This document shows, in pieces, positions 1,717-56,456 of a DNA stretch of 64,000 nucleotides (within the stretch, counting starts at the first letter, position 1; the number at the start of each line of letters is the position of its first letter). The notes beneath the pieces are model-generated. The model ran no database searches, was not told where the DNA came from, and worked only from the letters and a program-made list of their open reading frames with translations. The translations under genes and the position numbers were made by a program. This DNA is from Thermoflexales bacterium (GTDB taxonomy: Bacteria; Chloroflexota; Anaerolineae; B4-G1; DUEL01): NCBI GenBank assembly GCA_014360895.1, contig JACIWQ010000002.1, forward strand, positions 6,629 to 70,628, written 5' to 3'.

Positions 1717-2817
1717 TCACTCCAGGTCGTATGCCACCCCCAGTTCGGCGGCGATGGCCCGCAGGTCGGCCGCGACTTTGGGGTTCAACGGGATGCCCTC
1801 CCGCTGCCGTCGCTCCGTCTCTTCGTACTCCTTCTCCCCGTGGATGTAGATTCGGGTGGCGCCCTCCGCTTTCGGGGCGTTCTTCAGCCGTCGCTGCAGG
1901 TCGTCCATCGCGGCCTTGAACTCGTCCAGAGGCCGGAATCCGTCCACCCGCCAGGCCCCGAAGAAATGGCCCAGGTTGGCCGGCAGGGGCTTCCCGTCCG
2001 GCGTCTTCGGGTAGACCAGGTCGGCGTAGGCGGCGCCGGAGAGGACCGCGCAGAAGACATCCACCCAGAGGGCCAGGCCGTACCCCTTGTGTCCGCTGAG
2101 CAGTTCCCCTTCGCCGCCCAGTGGGAGGAGGCCGCCGCCGGCCCGATTCTTGAAGTTCTCCAGCACCCGACCGGCGTCTTCGGTGGCGATGCCGCGCTCA
2201 TCGGTGGCCCATCCCAGGGGCATGGGCTTCCCCAGCCGGTGGTAGACCTCCAGTTTGCCCCGGGGGACGGTGCTGGTGGCCATGTCCAGGACGAAGGGGC
2301 GCTCTTCTCCGGCGGGCGCGGCGACGGCAATAGGGTTGGTCCCCAGCATCGCGTTGCGGCCGAAGGTCGGCACGACCAGGACGTCCGCGTTGGTCATGGA
2401 CATGCCGATGCAGTCGTGCTCCAGAGCCATCATGGCGTAGTATCCGGCGATGCCGTAGTGATTGGAGTTGCGCACGGCGACGAATCCCGCGCCCACTTCC
2501 AGGGCCTTGCGGATGGCCATCTGCATCGCCCGGTAGGAGACGGGTTGTCCTAACCCGGCCCCGGCGTCTATGAGGGCGGTGGCTGGCGTCTCGTGCACCA
2601 CCTTCTCCTGAGGACGGGCGATCATCATGCCGGTCTGCAATCCCTCCACGTACCGGCGCAGTCGGGCCACGCCGTGAGAGTCAATCCCGCGCAGGTCCGC
2701 CGCCACCAGCACGTCGGCGGTAATCCGGGCATCCTCCTCCGGCACATCCAGTTTTCGGAAGACCCGCTCGCAGAACGCCCTGAGGGGCTCCGCCCAGACG
2801 CGTATCGCTTCTGCCAT
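1717..2817 (-). CDS. Ldh_2-family (malate/L-lactate/sulfolactate dehydrogenase-like) oxidoreductase
   Basis: Ldh_2 family motifs (GIDSHGV, NSNHYG, SGHKGYG). The start was moved to the internal ATG at 2817, which has a GGAGGT RBS. Confidence 0.75.
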   Translation of the reverse strand: MAEAIRVWAEPLRAFCERVFRKLDVPEEDARITADVLVAADLRGIDSHGVARLRRYVEGLQTGMMIARPQEKVVHETPATALIDAGAGLGQPVSYRAMQMAIRKALEVGAGFVAVRNSNHYGIAGYYAMMALEHDCIGMSMTNADVLVVPTFGRNAMLGTNPIAVAAPAGEERPFVLDMATSTVPRGKLEVYHRLGKPMPLGWATDERGIATEDAGRVLENFKNRAGGGLLPLGGEGELLSGHKGYGLALWVDVFCAVLSGAAYADLVYPKTPDGKPLPANLGHFFGAWRVDGFRPLDEFKAAMDDLQRRLKNAPKAEGATRIYIHGEKEYEETERRQREGIPLNPKVAADLRAIAAELGVAYDLE

Positions 2818-2819
2818 CT

Positions 2820-3290
2820 CTACCTCCGTTGGGGTTTGAGAATATCTACCAGCGGTGTTCCGCACCTGTACAAACGTATGGGATACTCCTTGCCTTTGAA
2901 AGAAATTCTCCGATTCCGTAAGTCTACGAGGTCCTGGGTATGGATCCGCTTGTACAAAATTACCGGCGTCAAATGGGCTACCTCAAGCGCAAACCTCCAG
3001 TCATTGGCGAGAACGTCAGCGGTGGCATGGAATTTCTTCACAATATCGCCGGTTTTTACCGTGCGGCTTTTCATTTCCACCACTACCCACCGGGGCCCAA
3101 CCGAATCCAGAATGACATAGTCCGGACGCTTCTCTTGCGGCGGAAAAGCCGCGCAGTTATCCGCGTCCACACAGACAAATCGGTATGGTTCCCCAACGGG
3201 CAGATCGCAGCCTTCTTTAGAGCACCGCGATACCAGACAGGGCGGGTTGCAATCCCGGTGAAGGCTCCGGAATTCGTCGGCGAGGCTCAT
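2820..3290 (-). CDS. Hypothetical small protein with an N-terminal Cys cluster (C-x3-C-x4-C-x4-C) and a PD-(D/E)xK-like core (ILD...VVVEMK); candidate nuclease partner of the upstream ATPase
   Basis: 156 aa ORF directly downstream of the ATPase gene, with a 12-nt gap. It lies in an AT-richer island. The nuclease assignment is inferred from motifs only. Confidence 0.5.
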   Translation of the reverse strand: MSLADEFRSLHRDCNPPCLVSRCSKEGCDLPVGEPYRFVCVDADNCAAFPPQEKRPDYVILDSVGPRWVVVEMKSRTVKTGDIVKKFHATADVLANDWRFALEVAHLTPVILYKRIHTQDLVDLRNRRISFKGKEYPIRLYRCGTPLVDILKPQRR

Positions 3291-3302
3291 CGGGGTGCTC
3301 CG

Positions 3303-4694
3303 CTATTCAGACTCTATCAGATCCAAGAGGCTATACGTCTGACTTCCAATGGCTTCCGCCACGCGGACAAATTCGTCTTCCGGGATGCCGAAGCCAGGTT
3401 CCGGAATAACTGGCTCAATGACCGAGCCGTCGCCCTCCATCCGGAAGAGATAGACACCGACCTCACCATAGCCCAGGCGGTCCCACTCCGGGTCAAAGCC
3501 CTCCGGCCGATGGCCCTTCTCCAGAGCCTCTCCCAGAAGCAAGTGGTTGCTAATCTGGTGAAGGATAATGTCGCTGTGGGTCGTACAAAGCACCCGCACG
3601 CCACACCGGACCAGCCGCACCATCAGGGTGGCAATGCGGCGCTGGTTCTCCGGATGGAGGTGGGCCTCCGGCTCTTCTATGATGAGCCAGTCGCCTCTGC
3701 GAAGAAGTCCTTTACGTAACCAGAGGTCTATCGGCGCCAATTCGGCCAAGCCGGAAGAAACGGCTGATAGAGGAATTCGCAGGCCCTGCTGGAAAACCAA
3801 AAGTTGTGGGTCTTCAGGAGACAACCAGTCCACGTATCCCTGCAAAATTTCTTCTAAAAGGGTCGTCACCGCCGTATCCTTTATCGGTTGCCAAACCCAG
3901 CGAGGGCCTCCCTCCAAAAGCGCCAAAAGAAAATCCCCTGCTACTCCAGTATAAGGAGTCGCTTGTATGGGCCTAATACCGATTTCTCGCCGGACCCAAC
4001 GGATAGCCATCGCCGCCAAAACTCTCCAGCCTTGCAGCAATCCAGCACGCGCGGCGGGAAAGTAGTAAATGCGCTCTGGCAACCCTAAAGAGTTCTGAAA
4101 GGCCCAGATGAGGTCCTCAGGGGTCAACTGTAAAGGGCGTCCGCGACGAGGCTTCGGAAGGCCGTAGAATTCCAGCGAAAGCCGATCAAAGCCACCCCAT
4201 TCCCATGACCACCCGCGTCCCTTTAACCAACCGCCTTGCACAACGAAGGGGGCTCTTTTTTCTTGTTCCCATCTAAACCCGATCTGGAGGTAATCCCCAC
4301 CCCGGCGCACCAGAGGCTCTATGGAATCCTGGCCAAAGTAATTGGGAATCTGATTCTCAAGCGAGGAGACGATTTGCCCGATGAATTGGGAAAGTTTCTC
4401 CCGAAAGGCCTCCTGCCCTGCTTCAGACAACATATCAGGCACAATTATTACCGGTTCAGTAGCGCTCTTACTGAGAGGCGATTTTGTAAGTAACCACAAC
4501 AGGTCCCAGATGTTTTCCCAACCTCTTACTTCCAGGGCCTTTATAAATAAATATGCCAGCGTCGCCGCGTACGTCTTCCCACTGCCGTTGGGACCGATGA
4601 AAACCGTCAGCGGGGCGAGGTCAAAACTCCCCTCTCGGATGGGACCGAAATCCTTCATCCAACATTGAATCCGAGGCCAGGTTTGCTCTTTCAT
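3303..4694 (-). CDS. ABC-type (AAA_15/AAA_21-like) ATPase, as found in Septu/PARIS/OLD-type defense systems
   Basis: Walker A FIGPNGSGKTY, Q-loop-like YYFPAAR, signature-like SSGLAE, Walker B WLIIEEPEAHLHP and H-loop TTHS. The start was moved to the ATG at 4694, which has a GAGGAG RBS. The longer ORF-track start would overlap the chelatase gene by about 120 nt. Confidence 0.7.
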   Translation of the reverse strand: MKEQTWPRIQCWMKDFGPIREGSFDLAPLTVFIGPNGSGKTYAATLAYLFIKALEVRGWENIWDLLWLLTKSPLSKSATEPVIIVPDMLSEAGQEAFREKLSQFIGQIVSSLENQIPNYFGQDSIEPLVRRGGDYLQIGFRWEQEKRAPFVVQGGWLKGRGWSWEWGGFDRLSLEFYGLPKPRRGRPLQLTPEDLIWAFQNSLGLPERIYYFPAARAGLLQGWRVLAAMAIRWVRREIGIRPIQATPYTGVAGDFLLALLEGGPRWVWQPIKDTAVTTLLEEILQGYVDWLSPEDPQLLVFQQGLRIPLSAVSSGLAELAPIDLWLRKGLLRRGDWLIIEEPEAHLHPENQRRIATLMVRLVRCGVRVLCTTHSDIILHQISNHLLLGEALEKGHRPEGFDPEWDRLGYGEVGVYLFRMEGDGSVIEPVIPEPGFGIPEDEFVRVAEAIGSQTYSLLDLIESE

Positions 4695-4740
4695 CTGTTT
4701 CTCCTCGCCGTCAACAGACCTTGTCAGGAATAACGCTGGG

Positions 4741-4840
4741 AAGTAGGACCGGAGGAAAATCCGCGCCTGTCCGCGTTCATCCGCGTCCGATTCCCGATGA
4801 GTCAATGAGCAGGCCTGGCGGCCTGCGCTACAATTGAACG
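4741..4840. repeat. Repeat family C copy (AAAATCYGCGC..GTCCGCGTTCATCCGCGTCC...GGCCTGGCGGCCTGCGCTAC)
   Basis: About 90-bp element, near-identical to the two tandem copies at 13112-13296. Confidence 0.6.
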
Positions 4841-6894
4841 TCCAGTTCCCGCCGCACTCGCTCCGCCAGCGCGTCGGCTCGCAGTTCCTCCAGCCGGTAG
4901 CAAGGGGCCTGGAGGTGCTCCGCCAGCGCCTGGGCCAGTCCCTGGTCAAAGGATTCGTGTTCCATGTTGATGACCACCGACCGGATGTGAGCCTGGGGGA
5001 AGAGTTCCGCGATGCGGTGGGCCTCCTCCTGGGGCGGCAGGTCGCTCATGGAGACGTTGCCGGCCCCGTCGGTGAGGAGCACCATCAGGGGCATCAGGTC
5101 GGGATGCTGACGGAGTTCGCGGGTGATGACTTCGTAGGCCAGGTTGAGCCCGGCGGAGAGGGGAGTTTTGCCCCCCACCGGGACGTCCTGAAGCGCTTTC
5201 TGGGCCCGGGTCACGCTACGGGTGGGCGGCAATACCACCCGGGCGCCGTTCTTCTGGAAGATGACCACGCCCACCCGGTCGCGGCGCTGGTAGGCATCGG
5301 TGAGCAGCGACATCACGGCCCCTTTGGTCGCCTCCATCCGCTCGGCGACCGCCATAGACCAGGACGCGTCCACCACGAAGAGGATGAGGTTGGCCATGCG
5401 GCGGACGCGCACTTTGCGGTGGTAGTCTTCCGGGCGGATGACCAGGGCGGGTCCACCGGGCCGACGACGACGGCTCTGGTGGGGCGCGGCGGCCCGCAGC
5501 GTGGCGTCAAAGGCCAGGTCGTCGGGATTGTCGGGGGAGGGGCGAGCTTGGATGTAGCGCCCGCGCCGCTGGTCGGTGCGGGTAGTGCTGCGCCGACCGG
5601 TCCCGGAGCGGGTCAGCCGGTCCAGGGGAGTATCCAGTCGTCGGGGAGTGAAGGACTCGCCGGTGGCAATTTTCTTTCCCCCTTCCCACCACTGCCCCTC
5701 GGAGGGCCACTGGGGAATGTGCTGGAAGACGGGTTCGCGCGGCCGCTCCCGTCCCTCAGAGGAGGGCATCTCCCCCGTCTCAACCTCTACGTGCGTTTTT
5801 TTTTCCTCCGGGAGGACCTCTTTGTCAACCACCTCCTCTGCCAGCGACGGCTCCTTTTGGGCCACCTGGACGCGGGCCTCGGCCAGCCGTTCCCCCAGAT
5901 TGTCCAGCGTCGCCTCTACCGGCTGGAGGGGGTGGCGACGGAGGCGGTGGGGCAGGGCCAGTTCGGCGGCCAGGAGGATGTCCCGGTCGGTGATGCGGGT
6001 GCGGCCTTCAAAGGCCGCGTTGGCCCGGGCCGTCTTCAGGATGACCATGTCGGGCCGGTGGCCGTCCACCCGCATCTCGGCCATCATCGCGGCGATGACG
6101 GCCAGGTCGCCCCGGGTGTGGCGCACCTGAGGCAGGAGTTGGCGGGCGCGGGCGATCTCCCGGGAAAGGGCCTCTTCGCGCGGCAACCATTCGGCGTAGA
6201 ACCCCTCGGGGTCGCTCTCAAAGGCCAGGTTGCGCTCCATAATGAGCATCCGCGCCGCCGGGTCGTGGACGCTGCGGATGTCCACGCAGAGGGCGAAGCG
6301 GTCCAGGAGTTGGGGGCGCAGGTCCCCTTCCTCCGGGTTCATCGTCCCGATGAGGATAAAGCGGGCCGGGTGGCTGAAGGAGATGCCCTCCCGCTCCACC
6401 ACGTTGACCCCCATCGCGGCCGCGTCCAGCAGGATGTCCACCACGTGGTCATCCAGCAGGTTGACCTCGTCCACGTAGAGGACGCCCCGGTTGGCGGCGG
6501 CCAGCACGCCCGGCTCAAAGTGGCGCTCCCCCTTCTGGATGGCCCGTTCAATATCCAGCGTGCCCACCACCCGGTCCTCCGTCGCGCTGACGGGGAGGTC
6601 CACAAATCGGGTACGGCGGCGGGCCCGGGGGAGTTCCTCCCCGGCCGCCGCCCGCTCTTTGCAGAGCGTGCACCAGGTGGCGGGCTGGTCGGGGTCGCAG
6701 GAGAACGGGCAATCGGCCACGACCTCTATCTCCGGCAACAGCGCAGCCAGGGCGCGGGCAGCGGTGGACTTGCCCGTCCCGCGTTCGCCGCGAATCAAGA
6801 CCCCTCCAATCTGGGGGTAGACGGCGTTCAGGACAAGCGCCCGGCGCATCAGGTCCTGGTTAACGATGGCAGTGAACGGAAAAATGGGCGGCAT
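4828..6894 (-). CDS. Mg-chelatase-like ChlI/ChlD fusion protein (AAA+ ATPase plus C-terminal vWA domain)
   Basis: N-terminus FPFTAIVNQDLMRRALVLNAVYPQIGGVLIRGERGTGKST matches the ChlI/BchI family. The C-terminal vWA domain carries DASWSM and a metal-ion-dependent adhesion site-like sequence. Confidence 0.8.
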   Translation of the reverse strand: MPPIFPFTAIVNQDLMRRALVLNAVYPQIGGVLIRGERGTGKSTAARALAALLPEIEVVADCPFSCDPDQPATWCTLCKERAAAGEELPRARRRTRFVDLPVSATEDRVVGTLDIERAIQKGERHFEPGVLAAANRGVLYVDEVNLLDDHVVDILLDAAAMGVNVVEREGISFSHPARFILIGTMNPEEGDLRPQLLDRFALCVDIRSVHDPAARMLIMERNLAFESDPEGFYAEWLPREEALSREIARARQLLPQVRHTRGDLAVIAAMMAEMRVDGHRPDMVILKTARANAAFEGRTRITDRDILLAAELALPHRLRRHPLQPVEATLDNLGERLAEARVQVAQKEPSLAEEVVDKEVLPEEKKTHVEVETGEMPSSEGRERPREPVFQHIPQWPSEGQWWEGGKKIATGESFTPRRLDTPLDRLTRSGTGRRSTTRTDQRRGRYIQARPSPDNPDDLAFDATLRAAAPHQSRRRRPGGPALVIRPEDYHRKVRVRRMANLILFVVDASWSMAVAERMEATKGAVMSLLTDAYQRRDRVGVVIFQKNGARVVLPPTRSVTRAQKALQDVPVGGKTPLSAGLNLAYEVITRELRQHPDLMPLMVLLTDGAGNVSMSDLPPQEEAHRIAELFPQAHIRSVVINMEHESFDQGLAQALAEHLQAPCYRLEELRADALAERVRRELDVQL

Positions 6895-13111: not shown

Positions 13112-13296
13112 TTCTTCAACGAAAATCTGCGCTCGTCCGCGTTCATCCGCGTCCTAATTATCCCGTTGCAATTCGCCTGTACAGACCTGGCGGCCTGCGC
13201 TACGTTGAAAATCTGCGCTCGTCCGCGTTCATCCGCGTCCTAATTATCCCGCTACAATTCGCCTGTACAGGCCTGGCGGCCTGCGCTACGTTCTAT
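13112..13296. repeat. Two tandem copies of the ~90-bp repeat family C element
   Basis: Near-identical direct repeats at 13118-13203 and 13207-13292. They are also related to the copy at 4741-4840. Confidence 0.8.
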
Positions 13297-53681: not shown

Positions 53682-53936
53682 GTGATGATGTCCGTCCTCA
53701 CGAAAATCCAGATTCTCCGCGCTTTAGACAGGTTGCCACCGGACAGTTTGCACATCGTGGCCGAGTTTGTGGAATTCCTGCGCGCAAAGGCCGAGGCCTC
53801 TGCACCGTCAATGGCTCCGCCCCAAAGGGTGGTGAAACTGGGCGGCCTGTGGGAAGGCTATTCGTTTTCAGAAGAAGAGATCCGCGCTGCACGGCGGGAA
53901 GCGTGGACCGGTTTAGGTCGGGGGTTAGATGGCTGA
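53682..53936 (+). CDS. Antitoxin-like small protein (VapB-type partner of the downstream PIN)
   Basis: 84 aa ORF overlapping the PIN gene start. The true start is ambiguous between GTG 53682, ATG 53685 and ATG 53688. Confidence 0.55.
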   Translation: MMMSVLTKIQILRALDRLPPDSLHIVAEFVEFLRAKAEASAPSMAPPQRVVKLGGLWEGYSFSEEEIRAARREAWTGLGRGLDG

Positions 53937-54333
53937 GTATGTGGCGGATACCCATGCCCTGGTCTGGCACTTGACCAACGACTCGCGTTTATCTCCCATA
54001 GCGCGTGCCGCCTTCACGGATGCGGACAACGGGCGTGGAGTTATCTGGATCCCCGGTGTGGTGCTGGTGGAGATTGTGTACCTGGTGGAAAAGGCGCGAC
54101 TACCGGGATCCATGAGCGCTCAGGTTTTGGACCTGGTGGACCCTCCCAGAGACAACTATCTTATTGTCCCCTTAGATGCTGGAGTGATCCGGACTTTACA
54201 AACCATTGACCGGGAAATCCTCCCGGATATGCCTGATCGCATCATCGCGGCCAGCGCCAAGTACCTGGGCCTCCCCTTACTATCCAAAGATTTGGCAATG
54301 GCGGGGATCCCCGGCCTATCGGTTGTCTGGTAA
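53929..54333 (+). CDS. vapC: PIN-domain toxin (VapC family)
   Basis: MAEYVADTHALVWHL ... PLDAGVIRTLQTI ... DRIIAASAKYLGLPLLSKD has the PIN acidic residues. Confidence 0.75.
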   Translation: MAEYVADTHALVWHLTNDSRLSPIARAAFTDADNGRGVIWIPGVVLVEIVYLVEKARLPGSMSAQVLDLVDPPRDNYLIVPLDAGVIRTLQTIDREILPDMPDRIIAASAKYLGLPLLSKDLAMAGIPGLSVVW

Positions 54334-54350
54334 GTCGTTTTGGTACCCAT

Positions 54351-54668
54351 TTGCAGGAGGCAATCTTTGTGATTCACGGCGTAGGACTCAAGCCCCTGGT
54401 CACCCACACCGACGGGCGCGGCTTTTTCCGCGAGATTATCCGGGCCAGCGACCCTATTTTCCCCGAGGGCTTCGGCCAGTGGAGCCACACCATGAGCCAC
54501 ACGGGTGTCGCCAAGGCCTGGCATATCCACCACCGCCAGACCGACTGGTGGTATGTGGCCTGTGGGACGGTGCGGGCCGCCCTCTACGATGCCCGCCCCG
54601 ACTCCCCGACCTACGGACAACTGGAGGAGTTCCTGCGGCTACGACTGGACCCGCTGGCCGGAGATTAA
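54351..54668 (+). pseudogene. Truncated duplicate of the rmlC-like gene (5' about 285 bp, then the last about 35 bp, internal deletion)
   Basis: Nucleotide identity of about 97% to 53161-53455 and then to 53590-53622. It reads as IHGVGLKPLVTHTD...TYGQLEEFL//RLRLDPLAGD. Confidence 0.65.
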
Positions 54669-54760
54669 ATAACAAACCACGAAGACACGAAGACGCGAAG
54701 TTGGTGATTGTTCTTTGTGTCTTCGCGCCTCCGTGGTAAAATTCTTGTTAGGAGGCACTG

Positions 54761-55504
54761 ATGAGTGCTGGAAGAAAATACGCTCAACCGCCGGTTGTGG
54801 AAGCAGTTTGCCAGTTCGTTCTGTCAGCCGATACCCCATGGGACATAACAGTCCCTGGTCTTTTTTACGAGAAACTCAAAGACGAATTTCCTTATCATGA
54901 AACTCGCATTTATCGGGGAGTCGGAATTCGCGTGCCGGAGCAGGATCAACCTCAGTTTCTGTTCGGCGAAGAGCCCGTTTTGGCCCTGTTTTCGGAAAGC
55001 CGGACAATGCTGGTTCAACTGGGCCCTCGCGTTTTAACGGTGAACTGCCTGAAGTCCTATCCTACATGGCCCGTTTTCCGTTCGAAAATTGAAAGAGCGT
55101 GGTTCAGCCTGAAAGAAGTTCTGGAAATCAAGGGGTTGGAACTGGTCAGGTTGCAATACATCAACCAAATCAAAATCCCGGAGTTCCCAGAGGATTTGCA
55201 GGACTGCTTCACCATCTACCCTCATTTTGGGCCGCTTCCAGTGTCCAATATCGTTATGTTTATCGTGGGGGCCTTGCTCACTTTCCACGATGGCCGCGAC
55301 CGCTGCCGGCTACAACTCAATAATCCTTCTGAGGAAGAGCGGCAAACGGTCATCCTGGACATTGAGTACTCTCTGACCCGGCCTGGGGACCTGGGCCTGG
55401 AAGCGATTCCCCAGTGGCTGGAAGAAGCGCACGACCGAATTGAAAATATTTTTGAAAGTTCCATCACCGATCGGCTCAGAACTACATTTCAGCTGGAGGC
55501 GTAA
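54761..55504 (+). CDS. TIGR04255-like conserved hypothetical protein
   Basis: N-terminus KYAQPPVVEAVCQFVL resembles the PPIVEA.C.F.F start of the TIGR04255 family. 247 aa. AT-richer composition than its flanks. Confidence 0.5.
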   Translation: MSAGRKYAQPPVVEAVCQFVLSADTPWDITVPGLFYEKLKDEFPYHETRIYRGVGIRVPEQDQPQFLFGEEPVLALFSESRTMLVQLGPRVLTVNCLKSYPTWPVFRSKIERAWFSLKEVLEIKGLELVRLQYINQIKIPEFPEDLQDCFTIYPHFGPLPVSNIVMFIVGALLTFHDGRDRCRLQLNNPSEEERQTVILDIEYSLTRPGDLGLEAIPQWLEEAHDRIENIFESSITDRLRTTFQLEA

Positions 55505-56083
55505 ATGGGAGCCTTAACCGATTATCCGGTCACAGGGCGGCAAGATGTCTCCTGTATGTTTCCTTTTCCATACAAGCGTAGAATCACCCCCTCTGGATCG
55601 TTAGCACAAATGGCGGTTGCCTTCTCCCATTCTGCCCCTGAAATCTGGCTTCCTTCGGGGAGATGGCAGGGAAAAGCGCGCCCCTCTCCGGATTATGATC
55701 TCTTGAACCAGCGGTATGTGCAATTTTTCCGCATCCAAAGCGCTTTGGCAGAAGTGGACGGAATGGGCATAAAAATCGTCAAACGTGACCAGGTTCAGGA
55801 CTATCTTAGGCGTTATCCCGAGATGATAGACCTGCTCCCTAAGGTAGCCCGTCTGGTTCAAGAGCAACTGCCGGATGCCCGGCTGGTTCTGACGGTTTAC
55901 CAAGACCCTGAAGAAGAAGACGAGTATCTAACGATATATGCCCGTTTTGCCAAATACGATAAGTGCTCTCTGGAAAGGGTTCGGATCACCCGGTCCAGAT
56001 ATCGGGATATGTTAAGAGATTGCCAGGGATGGATTTTCCTGACTACTGACTTCCAAACATCAGACAGGCCCTATGCCGTTTGA
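55505..56083 (+). CDS. Hypothetical protein
   Basis: Its ATG immediately follows the TAA of the upstream gene. The start may be internal (MGIKIVKRDQ...). No recognisable domain. Confidence 0.4.
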   Translation: MGALTDYPVTGRQDVSCMFPFPYKRRITPSGSLAQMAVAFSHSAPEIWLPSGRWQGKARPSPDYDLLNQRYVQFFRIQSALAEVDGMGIKIVKRDQVQDYLRRYPEMIDLLPKVARLVQEQLPDARLVLTVYQDPEEEDEYLTIYARFAKYDKCSLERVRITRSRYRDMLRDCQGWIFLTTDFQTSDRPYAV

Positions 56084-56438
56084 TTGGAGTGAGTTTCTTG
56101 CGGTAGCCCGGCATCTGCAAGGCCAATCAGGACCTGGCTATTCAGAAGAGGCCGCGAATCGCACGGCAATCAGTCGGGCTTATTACGCCGTCTTTGGACG
56201 CGTCTGTGAATTTGCTGAAGCGAACCTCGGCTTCCGACGGGCCGGAAGCGGGAGAGATCACCGGTCACTCAGAGAGCACCTCTATCATCAGGGAGGGCAA
56301 TGGCCTGCCATCGCTGACGATTTGAACGATCTGAGACAGTGGCGCAATTTGTGTGACTATGGGCCTGATGTCCAAAATCTGCAGATTCTGGTGATGGATG
56401 CGATCCGACGGGCGGAGCAGATCTTGCGACAAATTTAA
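56073..56438 (+). CDS. HEPN-like small protein
   Basis: SRAYYAVFGRV helix and an Rx4H motif (RSLREH). It overlaps the upstream ORF by 11 nt. Confidence 0.45.
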   Translation: MPFDWSEFLAVARHLQGQSGPGYSEEAANRTAISRAYYAVFGRVCEFAEANLGFRRAGSGRDHRSLREHLYHQGGQWPAIADDLNDLRQWRNLCDYGPDVQNLQILVMDAIRRAEQILRQI

Positions 56439-56456
56439 ACCGAGGAGAACTGACTT

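Follow-up and report, generated by a model that had tools for sequence, protein, structure and literature searches.

A conserved ABC ATPase and cysteine-rich PD-(D/E)xK nuclease gene pair in a Thermoflexales genome as a probable anti-phage system

In this study, we analysed a stretch of 64,000 nucleotides (nt) from a Thermoflexales bacterium (NCBI GenBank assembly GCA_014360895.1, contig JACIWQ010000002.1, positions 6,629 to 70,628 of the forward strand), hereafter called the window, and focused on a two-gene cassette at positions 2820-4694. The cassette encodes an ATP-binding cassette (ABC) ATPase and a small cysteine-rich protein predicted to be a PD-(D/E)xK nuclease. Together, the two genes probably make up a two-component system against phages (or mobile elements), of the class in which an ABC ATPase sensor is combined with a PD-(D/E)xK nuclease effector, as in PD-T4-4 and WonAB. 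This interpretation is favoured because the two genes are conserved as a pair, their composition is foreign, the ATPase gene is disrupted by an insertion sequence (IS) in one relative (locus L007) and the pair is duplicated in tandem in another (L028), allele variation is focused on an insert of the ATPase, and PD-T4-4 and WonAB serve as precedents.

The cassette consists of two genes:
3303..4694, minus strand: ABC ATPase of 463 amino acids (aa), OLD/PtuA/AriA-like, putative sensor/regulator subunit.
2820..3290, minus strand: cysteine-rich protein of 156 aa with a predicted PD-(D/E)xK fold, putative effector nuclease.

The open reading frame (ORF) of the ATPase starts with MKEQ and is preceded by GAGGAG, 8 nt upstream of the start. 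The small gene follows after a gap of 12 nt, within which GGAG is found. The GC content of the cassette is 54.8%, compared with a window mean of 64.5% (SD 3.8 points, equal-size windows). GC content at third codon positions (GC3) is 0.60-0.62 in the pair and 0.85-0.86 in the two flanking genes. The cassette is a compositionally foreign two-gene module. An AT-richer island of two genes had been proposed here from the letters of the DNA alone (the original prediction), and both its coordinates and its structure were borne out.

As judged from its motifs, the larger protein is an OLD/PtuA/AriA-type ABC ATPase with a complete set of conserved catalytic motifs. Its features, with residues invariant among 41 homologues, are as follows:
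4572..4595, minus strand: Walker A motif GPNGSGKT, aa 34-41 (G34, N36, G39 and K40 invariant).
4095..4532, minus strand: hypervariable Insert 1, aa ~55-200, putative sensor region, recognised by allele divergence.
4047..4067, minus strand: YYFPAAR, aa 210-216, with Arg at the Q-loop position, a trait of OLD-family ABC ATPases (P213 and R216 invariant).
3741..3758, minus strand: ABC signature SSGLAE, aa 313-318 (S313, S314 and L319 invariant).
3651..3689, minus strand: Walker B and D-loop WLIIEEPEAHLHP, aa 336-348 (E341, P342, E343, A344, H347 and P348 invariant).
3573..3584, minus strand: H-loop TTHS, aa 371-374 (T372, H373 and S374 invariant).
3306..3542, minus strand: conserved C-terminal extension, aa 385-463, putative nuclease docking surface (F435, G436, I437, E441, F442, V445 and G450 invariant).

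A Pfam search of the ATPase returned AAA_15 (64.2 bits, gathering cut-off 32.1) and AAA_21 (58.5 bits, cut-off 27), with AAA_23 also listed, and detected no Toprim, HNH or helicase domain. The best PADLOC models were PD-T4-4_A (5.7e-32, 109 bits) and PDC-M47A (5.2e-27), followed in order by NsnB, AriA, HEC-02A, MAD3, GajA, Old and PtuA. The motif set, the lack of Toprim and HNH domains and the likeness to PtuA, AriA and OLD defence ATPases, all of them anticipated from the sequence, agreed with these searches.

The small protein had no match in Pfam, NCBIfam or PADLOC. A word-indexed search for relatives yielded 11 sequences, and the family was recovered by an exhaustive profile search of 1.84 billion cluster representatives. 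That search returned 748 members at E <= 1e-3, nearly all of 120-175 aa. The members are cluster representatives at 50% identity and come from Bacteria and Archaea. The AlphaFold2 (AF2) model built from the 11-sequence alignment reached a pLDDT of 92.3 and a pTM of 0.89, and it contains the alpha/beta core of restriction endonucleases. Conservation was determined in a 118-sequence alignment of the family:
3207..3251, minus strand: N-terminal Cys cluster C14-x3-C18-x4-C23-x4-C28 (C14 conserved in 36%, C18 in 72%, C23 in 86% and C28 in 94%).
3120..3125, minus strand: P56-D57, the putative catalytic "PD" (D57 in 118 of 118 sequences).
3069..3077, minus strand: E72-M73-K74, the putative catalytic "ExK" (E72 and K74 each in 115 of 118).
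2862..2864, minus strand: C143, the fourth conserved Cys, in an RCG motif near the C-terminus (93% of the family).

Since D57 is invariant and E72 and K74 are nearly so, the catalytic motif is assigned to P56-D57...E72-M-K74, which has textbook spacing. D42 (81%) and D44 (87%) are conserved as well. Model and alignment together indicate that the small protein has a restriction-endonuclease fold with a D...ExK triad and is a predicted PD-(D/E)xK nuclease. The original prediction had named a small nuclease of this fold, with which these data agree. It had pointed to a Cys cluster and a D...(E)xK pattern, both of which the sequence contains; D57, not D62 of "YVILD", is the catalytic Asp, and C14 is poorly conserved.

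A classical Zn-ribbon, the other label given to this protein, was rejected. CxxC knuckles are absent, and the conserved cysteines are C18/C23/C28 and C143, the last of which lies 115 residues away. These residues link the N-terminal hairpin with the C-terminal RCG motif and probably form a structural Zn or Fe-S site. Proteins of the family contain about 7 Cys residues on average. A second, variable Cys group occurs in two nearly exclusive patterns, with either Cys56 directly before the catalytic Asp or Cys14/43/46; the clade of the window has its own version of the latter at positions 14, 40 and 46. The two patterns suggest that a second metal or disulfide site exists in alternative versions.

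A scan of one genome per species identified 79 loci with a relative of the ATPase. The small gene was located directly downstream on the same strand in 39 of the 44 loci whose ATPase reached at least 240 bits in the hidden Markov model search and that had room downstream; among more distant ATPases the fraction was 10/30. The closer loci show that the two genes are obligate neighbours in both Bacteria and Archaea. The hosts include Dehalococcoidia, Caldilineaceae, Bryobacterales, Nitrospirales, Poribacteria, Gammaproteobacteria, Thermofilales, Nitrosopumilaceae and Methanomicrobiales. GC content of the pair was lower than that of the flanks in 38 of 40 genome loci, by 6.4 points on average. 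A metagenome scan using the close-clade alignment found 4 loci only and added no information.

Several loci deserve individual description. A Poribacteria metagenome-assembled genome (MAG; L028, 7956-12102) carries two ATPase-nuclease pairs of the family in tandem. On a JGI metagenome contig (L007, 3994-7140), the ATPase is split into parts of 313 and 144 aa by two genes on the opposite strand; one of these has a weak match to an IS1 transposase (23.3 bits, just under the cut-off), and the nuclease gene downstream is intact. The L007 pair adjoins a MacB transporter, and the L090 pair adjoins UvrD. A Thermoflexus sp. and a relative harbour a paralogous pair (L088/L089, 8001-9895; L091, 8001-9911), whose ATPase is 38-42% identical to that of the window. 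The paralogous pair occupies another syntenic housekeeping site, downstream of GatC/GatA/M23 peptidase/UPRTase and a CCA-type DHH-CBS-PolyA_pol protein. Its small gene in L089 was overlooked by the gene caller.

The close family was not found on sequenced plasmids and phages, in which the ATPase gave partial plasmid matches only, at <=46% identity. Prophages of IMG/VR contain distant ATPase relatives only, and these are accompanied by different, larger partners (184-235 aa, E[LM]KS motif), mostly without PADLOC models. Comparison of these partners with the small family by hhalign gave weak probabilities of 31-63%. The ExK of the small family is in register with the ExK/DxK of the prophage partners and of PD-T4-4_B.

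Allele divergence was evaluated in syntenic relatives. All genes of relevance here within the window's first 9 kb are on the minus strand. Upstream of the cassette lies a gene of the AAA+/VWA (ChlD-like) type (4828-6894, 688 aa; Pfam domains Mg_chelatase/AAA_5/AAA_lid_2 and VWA), separated from the ATPase ORF by a spacer of 133 nt. Downstream is a gene of the Ldh_2 family (1717-2817, minus strand, Pfam 424 bits), whose ATG at 2817 is 2 nt past the stop of the small gene and whose ribosome-binding site falls inside the 3' end of the small gene. The order URO-D / ChlI-like / VWA / ATPase / small gene / Ldh_2 / DUF1385 is the same in the window, in L001 (GCA_034435875.1) and in the MAGs L003-L006. 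The ChlI-like AAA+ and VWA parts form a single ORF in the window and two genes in L001 (3867-6064) and L003 (6488-8598). The split genes encode 368-369 aa and 327-357 aa, lie 17 nt apart and show nucleotide identity of about 90%; the difference reflects either a genuine gene fusion or split or a frameshift in the assembly.

The flanking proteins are 92-98% identical between the window and L001 and L003. In all three pairwise comparisons of these genomes, protein identity is 64-70% for the ATPase and 54-72% for the nuclease. Sliding nucleotide identity is about 0.9 outside the cassette and changes sharply at 4830 and 2817. Inside, it forms a mosaic: 0.23-0.49 in the spacer, about 0.87 around Walker A, 0.3-0.55 in the insert (4560-4070), 0.8-0.9 in the C-terminal half of the ATPase and 0.56-0.81 in the nuclease. 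Among 13 close ATPase alleles, variation is focused at aa 55-200 and 261-280, in contrast to the conserved catalytic core and C-terminal extension. Mean pairwise identity in this set is 0.09-0.49 for Insert 1, and mean identity of the Walker B/D-loop among close alleles is 0.96.

Synonymous divergence (dS) is 0.27-0.43 in five flanking genes and 0.7-1.4 in the pair, 2-5 times higher, with the caveat that the strong GC3 bias of the flanking genes may lower their dS. By part, dS is 0.7-1.15 in the nuclease and 0.8-0.9 in the C-terminal half of the ATPase; the insert is saturated, and its nonsynonymous divergence (pN) is 0.44-0.46. The raised dS of the pair implies that the cassette alleles predate the divergence of the backbone or were exchanged, beyond mere faster protein evolution.

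The divergence pattern bears on two other explanations. In the first, the pair would act in one operon with the ChlI/ChlD-like AAA+/VWA chelatase-type proteins and the Ldh_2 dehydrogenase. The common strand, the very short gaps, the Ldh_2 ribosome-binding site inside the small gene and the recurrence of the URO-D to DUF1385 gene order in L001 and L003-L006 are in its favour. However, the neighbours are unrelated in all other lineages, and GC content and divergence break exactly at the cassette borders. Co-occurrence of chelatase or Ldh_2 genes with the pair was not seen in unrelated phyla. We therefore rejected a functional tie to these neighbours, which change across lineages and at whose borders the divergence stops, and regard the shared operon as highly improbable.

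The second explanation is a housekeeping repair or recombination pair, in which an SMC/Rad50/RecF-like ATPase would cooperate with a NucS- or Hjc-like nuclease and be vertically retained. The protein identities point the other way, since a repair gene would be expected to be conserved and the pair (54-72%) is far more diverged than its neighbours (92-98%). The GC3 of 0.60 against 0.86 in the flanking genes, the patchy distribution and the IS disruption in L007 also argue against it. The ATPase has no coiled-coil insertion. NCBIfam gave weak sub-threshold matches only, among them RecF at E = 0.12, compared with 1e-20 to 1e-32 for defence ATPase models, which supports the view that the ATPase is not a RecF/SbcC-like housekeeping paralogue. 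A repair role is unlikely in our view, although less so than the operon link.

The region upstream of the cassette has two features:
4695..4827, minus strand: upstream intergenic region and presumed promoter, which diverges together with the cassette (identity to relatives 0.23-0.49).
4755..4831, no strand assigned: short dispersed repeat that makes up most of the intergenic region, with two more tandem copies at 13121-13203 and 13207-13289.

A scan of this region for sigma-70 consensus promoters and terminators was uninformative and gave no promoter match. The dispersed repeat is about 80 nt long, its three copies are 78% identical, and the tandem pair lies 8 kb from the copy at the cassette; a repeat at the upstream edge had been noted from the sequence. 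Its core reads GGATGAACGCGGAC..GCGC.GAT, and a 24-nt core occurs 3 times, with 0 occurrences expected. The repeat-bearing spacer is 23-49% identical in the syntenic relatives L001 and L003.

No flanking direct (att-like) repeats, tRNA or integrase were found next to the cassette of the window. A recent insertion was rejected because these integration marks are missing and the close relatives share the same cassette at the same site. The cassette is an old resident locus rather than a recent insertion. A bolder reading extends this result. In this Thermoflexales lineage, the ChlD-Ldh_2 site would serve as a fixed immune locus on the chromosome, with ancient balanced alleles that predate the genomes carrying them. 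Alleles would move between genomes by homologous recombination within the flanks and the ATPase core, both of them conserved, and the sensor insert and the nuclease would be swapped as modules, in a manner resembling the major histocompatibility complex. The effector would represent a hitherto uncharacterised family of metal-cluster (Fe-S or Zn) mini-nucleases of about 750 clusters in Bacteria and Archaea. We put this combined proposal forward as speculative and rather doubtful.

For the anti-phage system, we infer a defence function, a sensor role for the insert, docking of the nuclease at the C-terminus of the ATPase, a substrate and a metal site, which can be assembled into a working model. 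The ATPase would dimerise head to head around ATP, and the small nuclease would be held on its conserved C-terminal extension. The hypervariable insert (aa ~55-200 and 261-280) would survey the cell. When a protein or nucleic-acid structure from a phage is recognised, the ATPase cycle would change and license the nuclease, which would cut nucleic acid, either DNA or, by analogy with WonB, translation-related RNA. The infected cell would be arrested as a result. The Cys4 site (C18/C23/C28/C143) of the nuclease is probably occupied by Zn or an Fe-S cluster, and it probably staples the N-terminal hairpin to the C-terminal strand.

Several observations weigh against an anti-phage role. About 10% of the immediate neighbours in 31 loci are of defence type and the remainder are metabolic; the raw counts for 124 neighbours include 4 type III-like DNA methylases, 3 ResIII, 2 DUF1156 and 5-6 other AAA_15/21 ATPases. 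The contexts of the window and of four other inspected loci are housekeeping. Co-localisation with defence genes, a proposed test of the original prediction, is therefore confined to a minority of loci, and the pair sits mostly among housekeeping genes. Related genomes keep the cassette at a single chromosomal position, a stability uncommon among defence genes, and tblastn of the small protein against sequenced plasmids and phages returned no match. A PADLOC run, likewise proposed, recovered the ATPase through PD-T4-4_A and PDC-M47A and left the small protein without a model. Comparison of the small family with true PD-T4-4_B by hhalign gave a probability of 25%, with the catalytic cores in register. 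We nevertheless consider an anti-phage system likely; the divergence pattern, the composition, the variety of neighbours and the model matches fit it better than they fit the competing explanations.

If so, a widespread family is added to the ABC ATPase plus small nuclease class of immune systems, and it covers environmental phyla with poorly charted defence, namely Chloroflexota, Poribacteria, Nitrospirota and Thermoproteota. Judging from the allele comparison, specificity or sensing is probably determined by the insert of the ATPase. The alleles provide a natural variant series on a near-identical genomic backbone with which sensing by such ATPases can be studied, a question shared with PD-T4-4 and WonAB. 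For biochemical work, the conserved Cys4 site offers a concrete starting point.

Elsewhere in the window, positions 53700-56450 have the lowest GC content (0.52-0.55). This segment contains a PIN-domain (VapC-like) gene (53929-54333) and three consecutive plus-strand ORFs without a Pfam match (54761-55504, 55505-56083 and 56073-56438). It may be another accessory or defence islet.

The pair was compared with known systems. PD-T4-4 of Escherichia coli was found by functional selection (Vassallo et al. 2022, PMC9519451) and has been classed as a P-loop/ABC NTPase with a PD-(D/E)xK nuclease (PMC10952713; 10.1101/2025.07.10.664194). Like the pair of the window, it consists of an ABC/AAA_15 ATPase (~470 aa) followed immediately by a PD-(D/E)xK nuclease. 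Reference pairs were taken from plasmids pKPN6 (L142) and pRHB38-C24_5. True pairs score 772-862 bits over the full length for A and 309-357 bits for B in PADLOC, and they also touch PDC-M47A and PDC-M47B. The ATPase of the window reaches its 109 bits against PD-T4-4_A in two partial stretches, which makes it a remote homologue outside the family. It aligns with true PD-T4-4_A only in the Walker A region, the C-terminal half and the extension (C-terminal half with the extension: 32% identity over 140 aa, hhalign 99.5%), and the inserts are unrelated. The small protein of the window has no match to the PD-T4-4_B model at E <= 1. PD-T4-4_B is ~210 aa long and has DxK where the small family has ExK. 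PD-T4-4 is borne on plasmids and integrative and conjugative elements, whereas the family of the window was unseen on sequenced plasmids and phages. Full-scoring PD-T4-4 was present on very small ColE1-type plasmids, Klebsiella pneumoniae pKPN6 (L142, 4.26 kb) and an E. coli IncX1 plasmid (L143), and it occupies about half of pKPN6.

PDC-M47 is matched by the ATPase of the window through its A model, but the small protein reaches no PDC-M47B model at E <= 1, which places the pair outside this family too. Across the 118 members of the small family, 28, 11, 8, 3 and 2 match the five PDC-M47B models and 4 match PD-T4-4_B, all of them weakly. No published experimental test of PDC-M47 was found in the literature.

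WonAB, from the WASA-1 prophage of Vibrio cholerae, combines an OLD-type ABC ATPase with a 16-kDa PD-(D/E)xK variant (PMC12137116). Its defence depends on both genes and on K34, R182, E300 and H333 of WonA and K71 of WonB, and the R182A substitution in WonA abolishes it (PMC12137116). WonAB causes abortive infection independently of lysis, in which translation stops and the genomic DNA stays intact; the Lon-labile WonB is toxic only alongside active WonA, whose C-terminal extensions are predicted to bind WonB (PMC12137116). The pair of the window resembles WonAB in its OLD-type ATPase with a Q-loop Arg, its small nuclease and its conserved ATPase C-terminal extension. By architecture and published positions only, the WonA and WonB residues are paralleled by K40, R216, E341/E343 and H373 of the ATPase and K74 of the nuclease, and R216 is presumably the equivalent of WonA R182. 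Unlike the family of the window, WonAB is prophage-borne and is found mainly in Gram-negative bacteria. Its authors tied it to an "OLD-ABC ATPase + novel REase" operon (0.96% of genomes) and loosely to PD-T4-4 (PMC12137116).

The behaviour of WonAB also bears on a selfish addiction or toxin-antitoxin-like module, in which the ATPase would restrain a nuclease toxin and loss of the pair would be lethal. The toxicity of overproduced WonB, the persistence of a cassette of foreign composition at one locus and the Pfam label of AAA_21 ("putative AbiEii toxin, Type IV TA system" domain) are compatible with such a module. However, the WonAB ATPase is needed for nuclease toxicity and does not neutralise it, which argues against simple sequestration, and the intact nuclease gene of L007 stands beside an IS-disrupted ATPase. 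The hypervariability of the insert is more readily explained by diversifying pressure on a sensor than by an antitoxin role. Addiction is thus an improbable explanation, if somewhat less so than a repair function.

PARIS, Septu, Gabija, class 1-2 OLD and HEC-02 use the same ABC ATPase clade as sensor or regulator of a nuclease effector. Their effectors are Toprim (AriB, OLD, GajA), HNH (PtuB) and NERD (HEC-02) proteins, with a helicase added in Gabija (GajB), and none of these is present in the pair of the window. The original prediction suggested that this pairing was unmatched, naming Septu, PARIS, Gabija and classic OLD. Its novelty was overstated because PD-T4-4, WonAB, the "OLD-ABC ATPase + novel REase" operon and PDC-M47, together with HEC-02 as an ABC plus NERD system, share the arrangement, and the combination of an ATPase with a mini PD-(D/E)xK nuclease is already known and validated as anti-phage in PD-T4-4 and WonAB. 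As judged by the sequence models, the pair is a separate family with the same architecture and a homologous ATPase core, outside PD-T4-4 and PDC-M47. New are a family of predicted Cys-rich nucleases of ~155 aa, absent from domain and defence libraries, and deeply diverged alleles at a fixed chromosomal locus.

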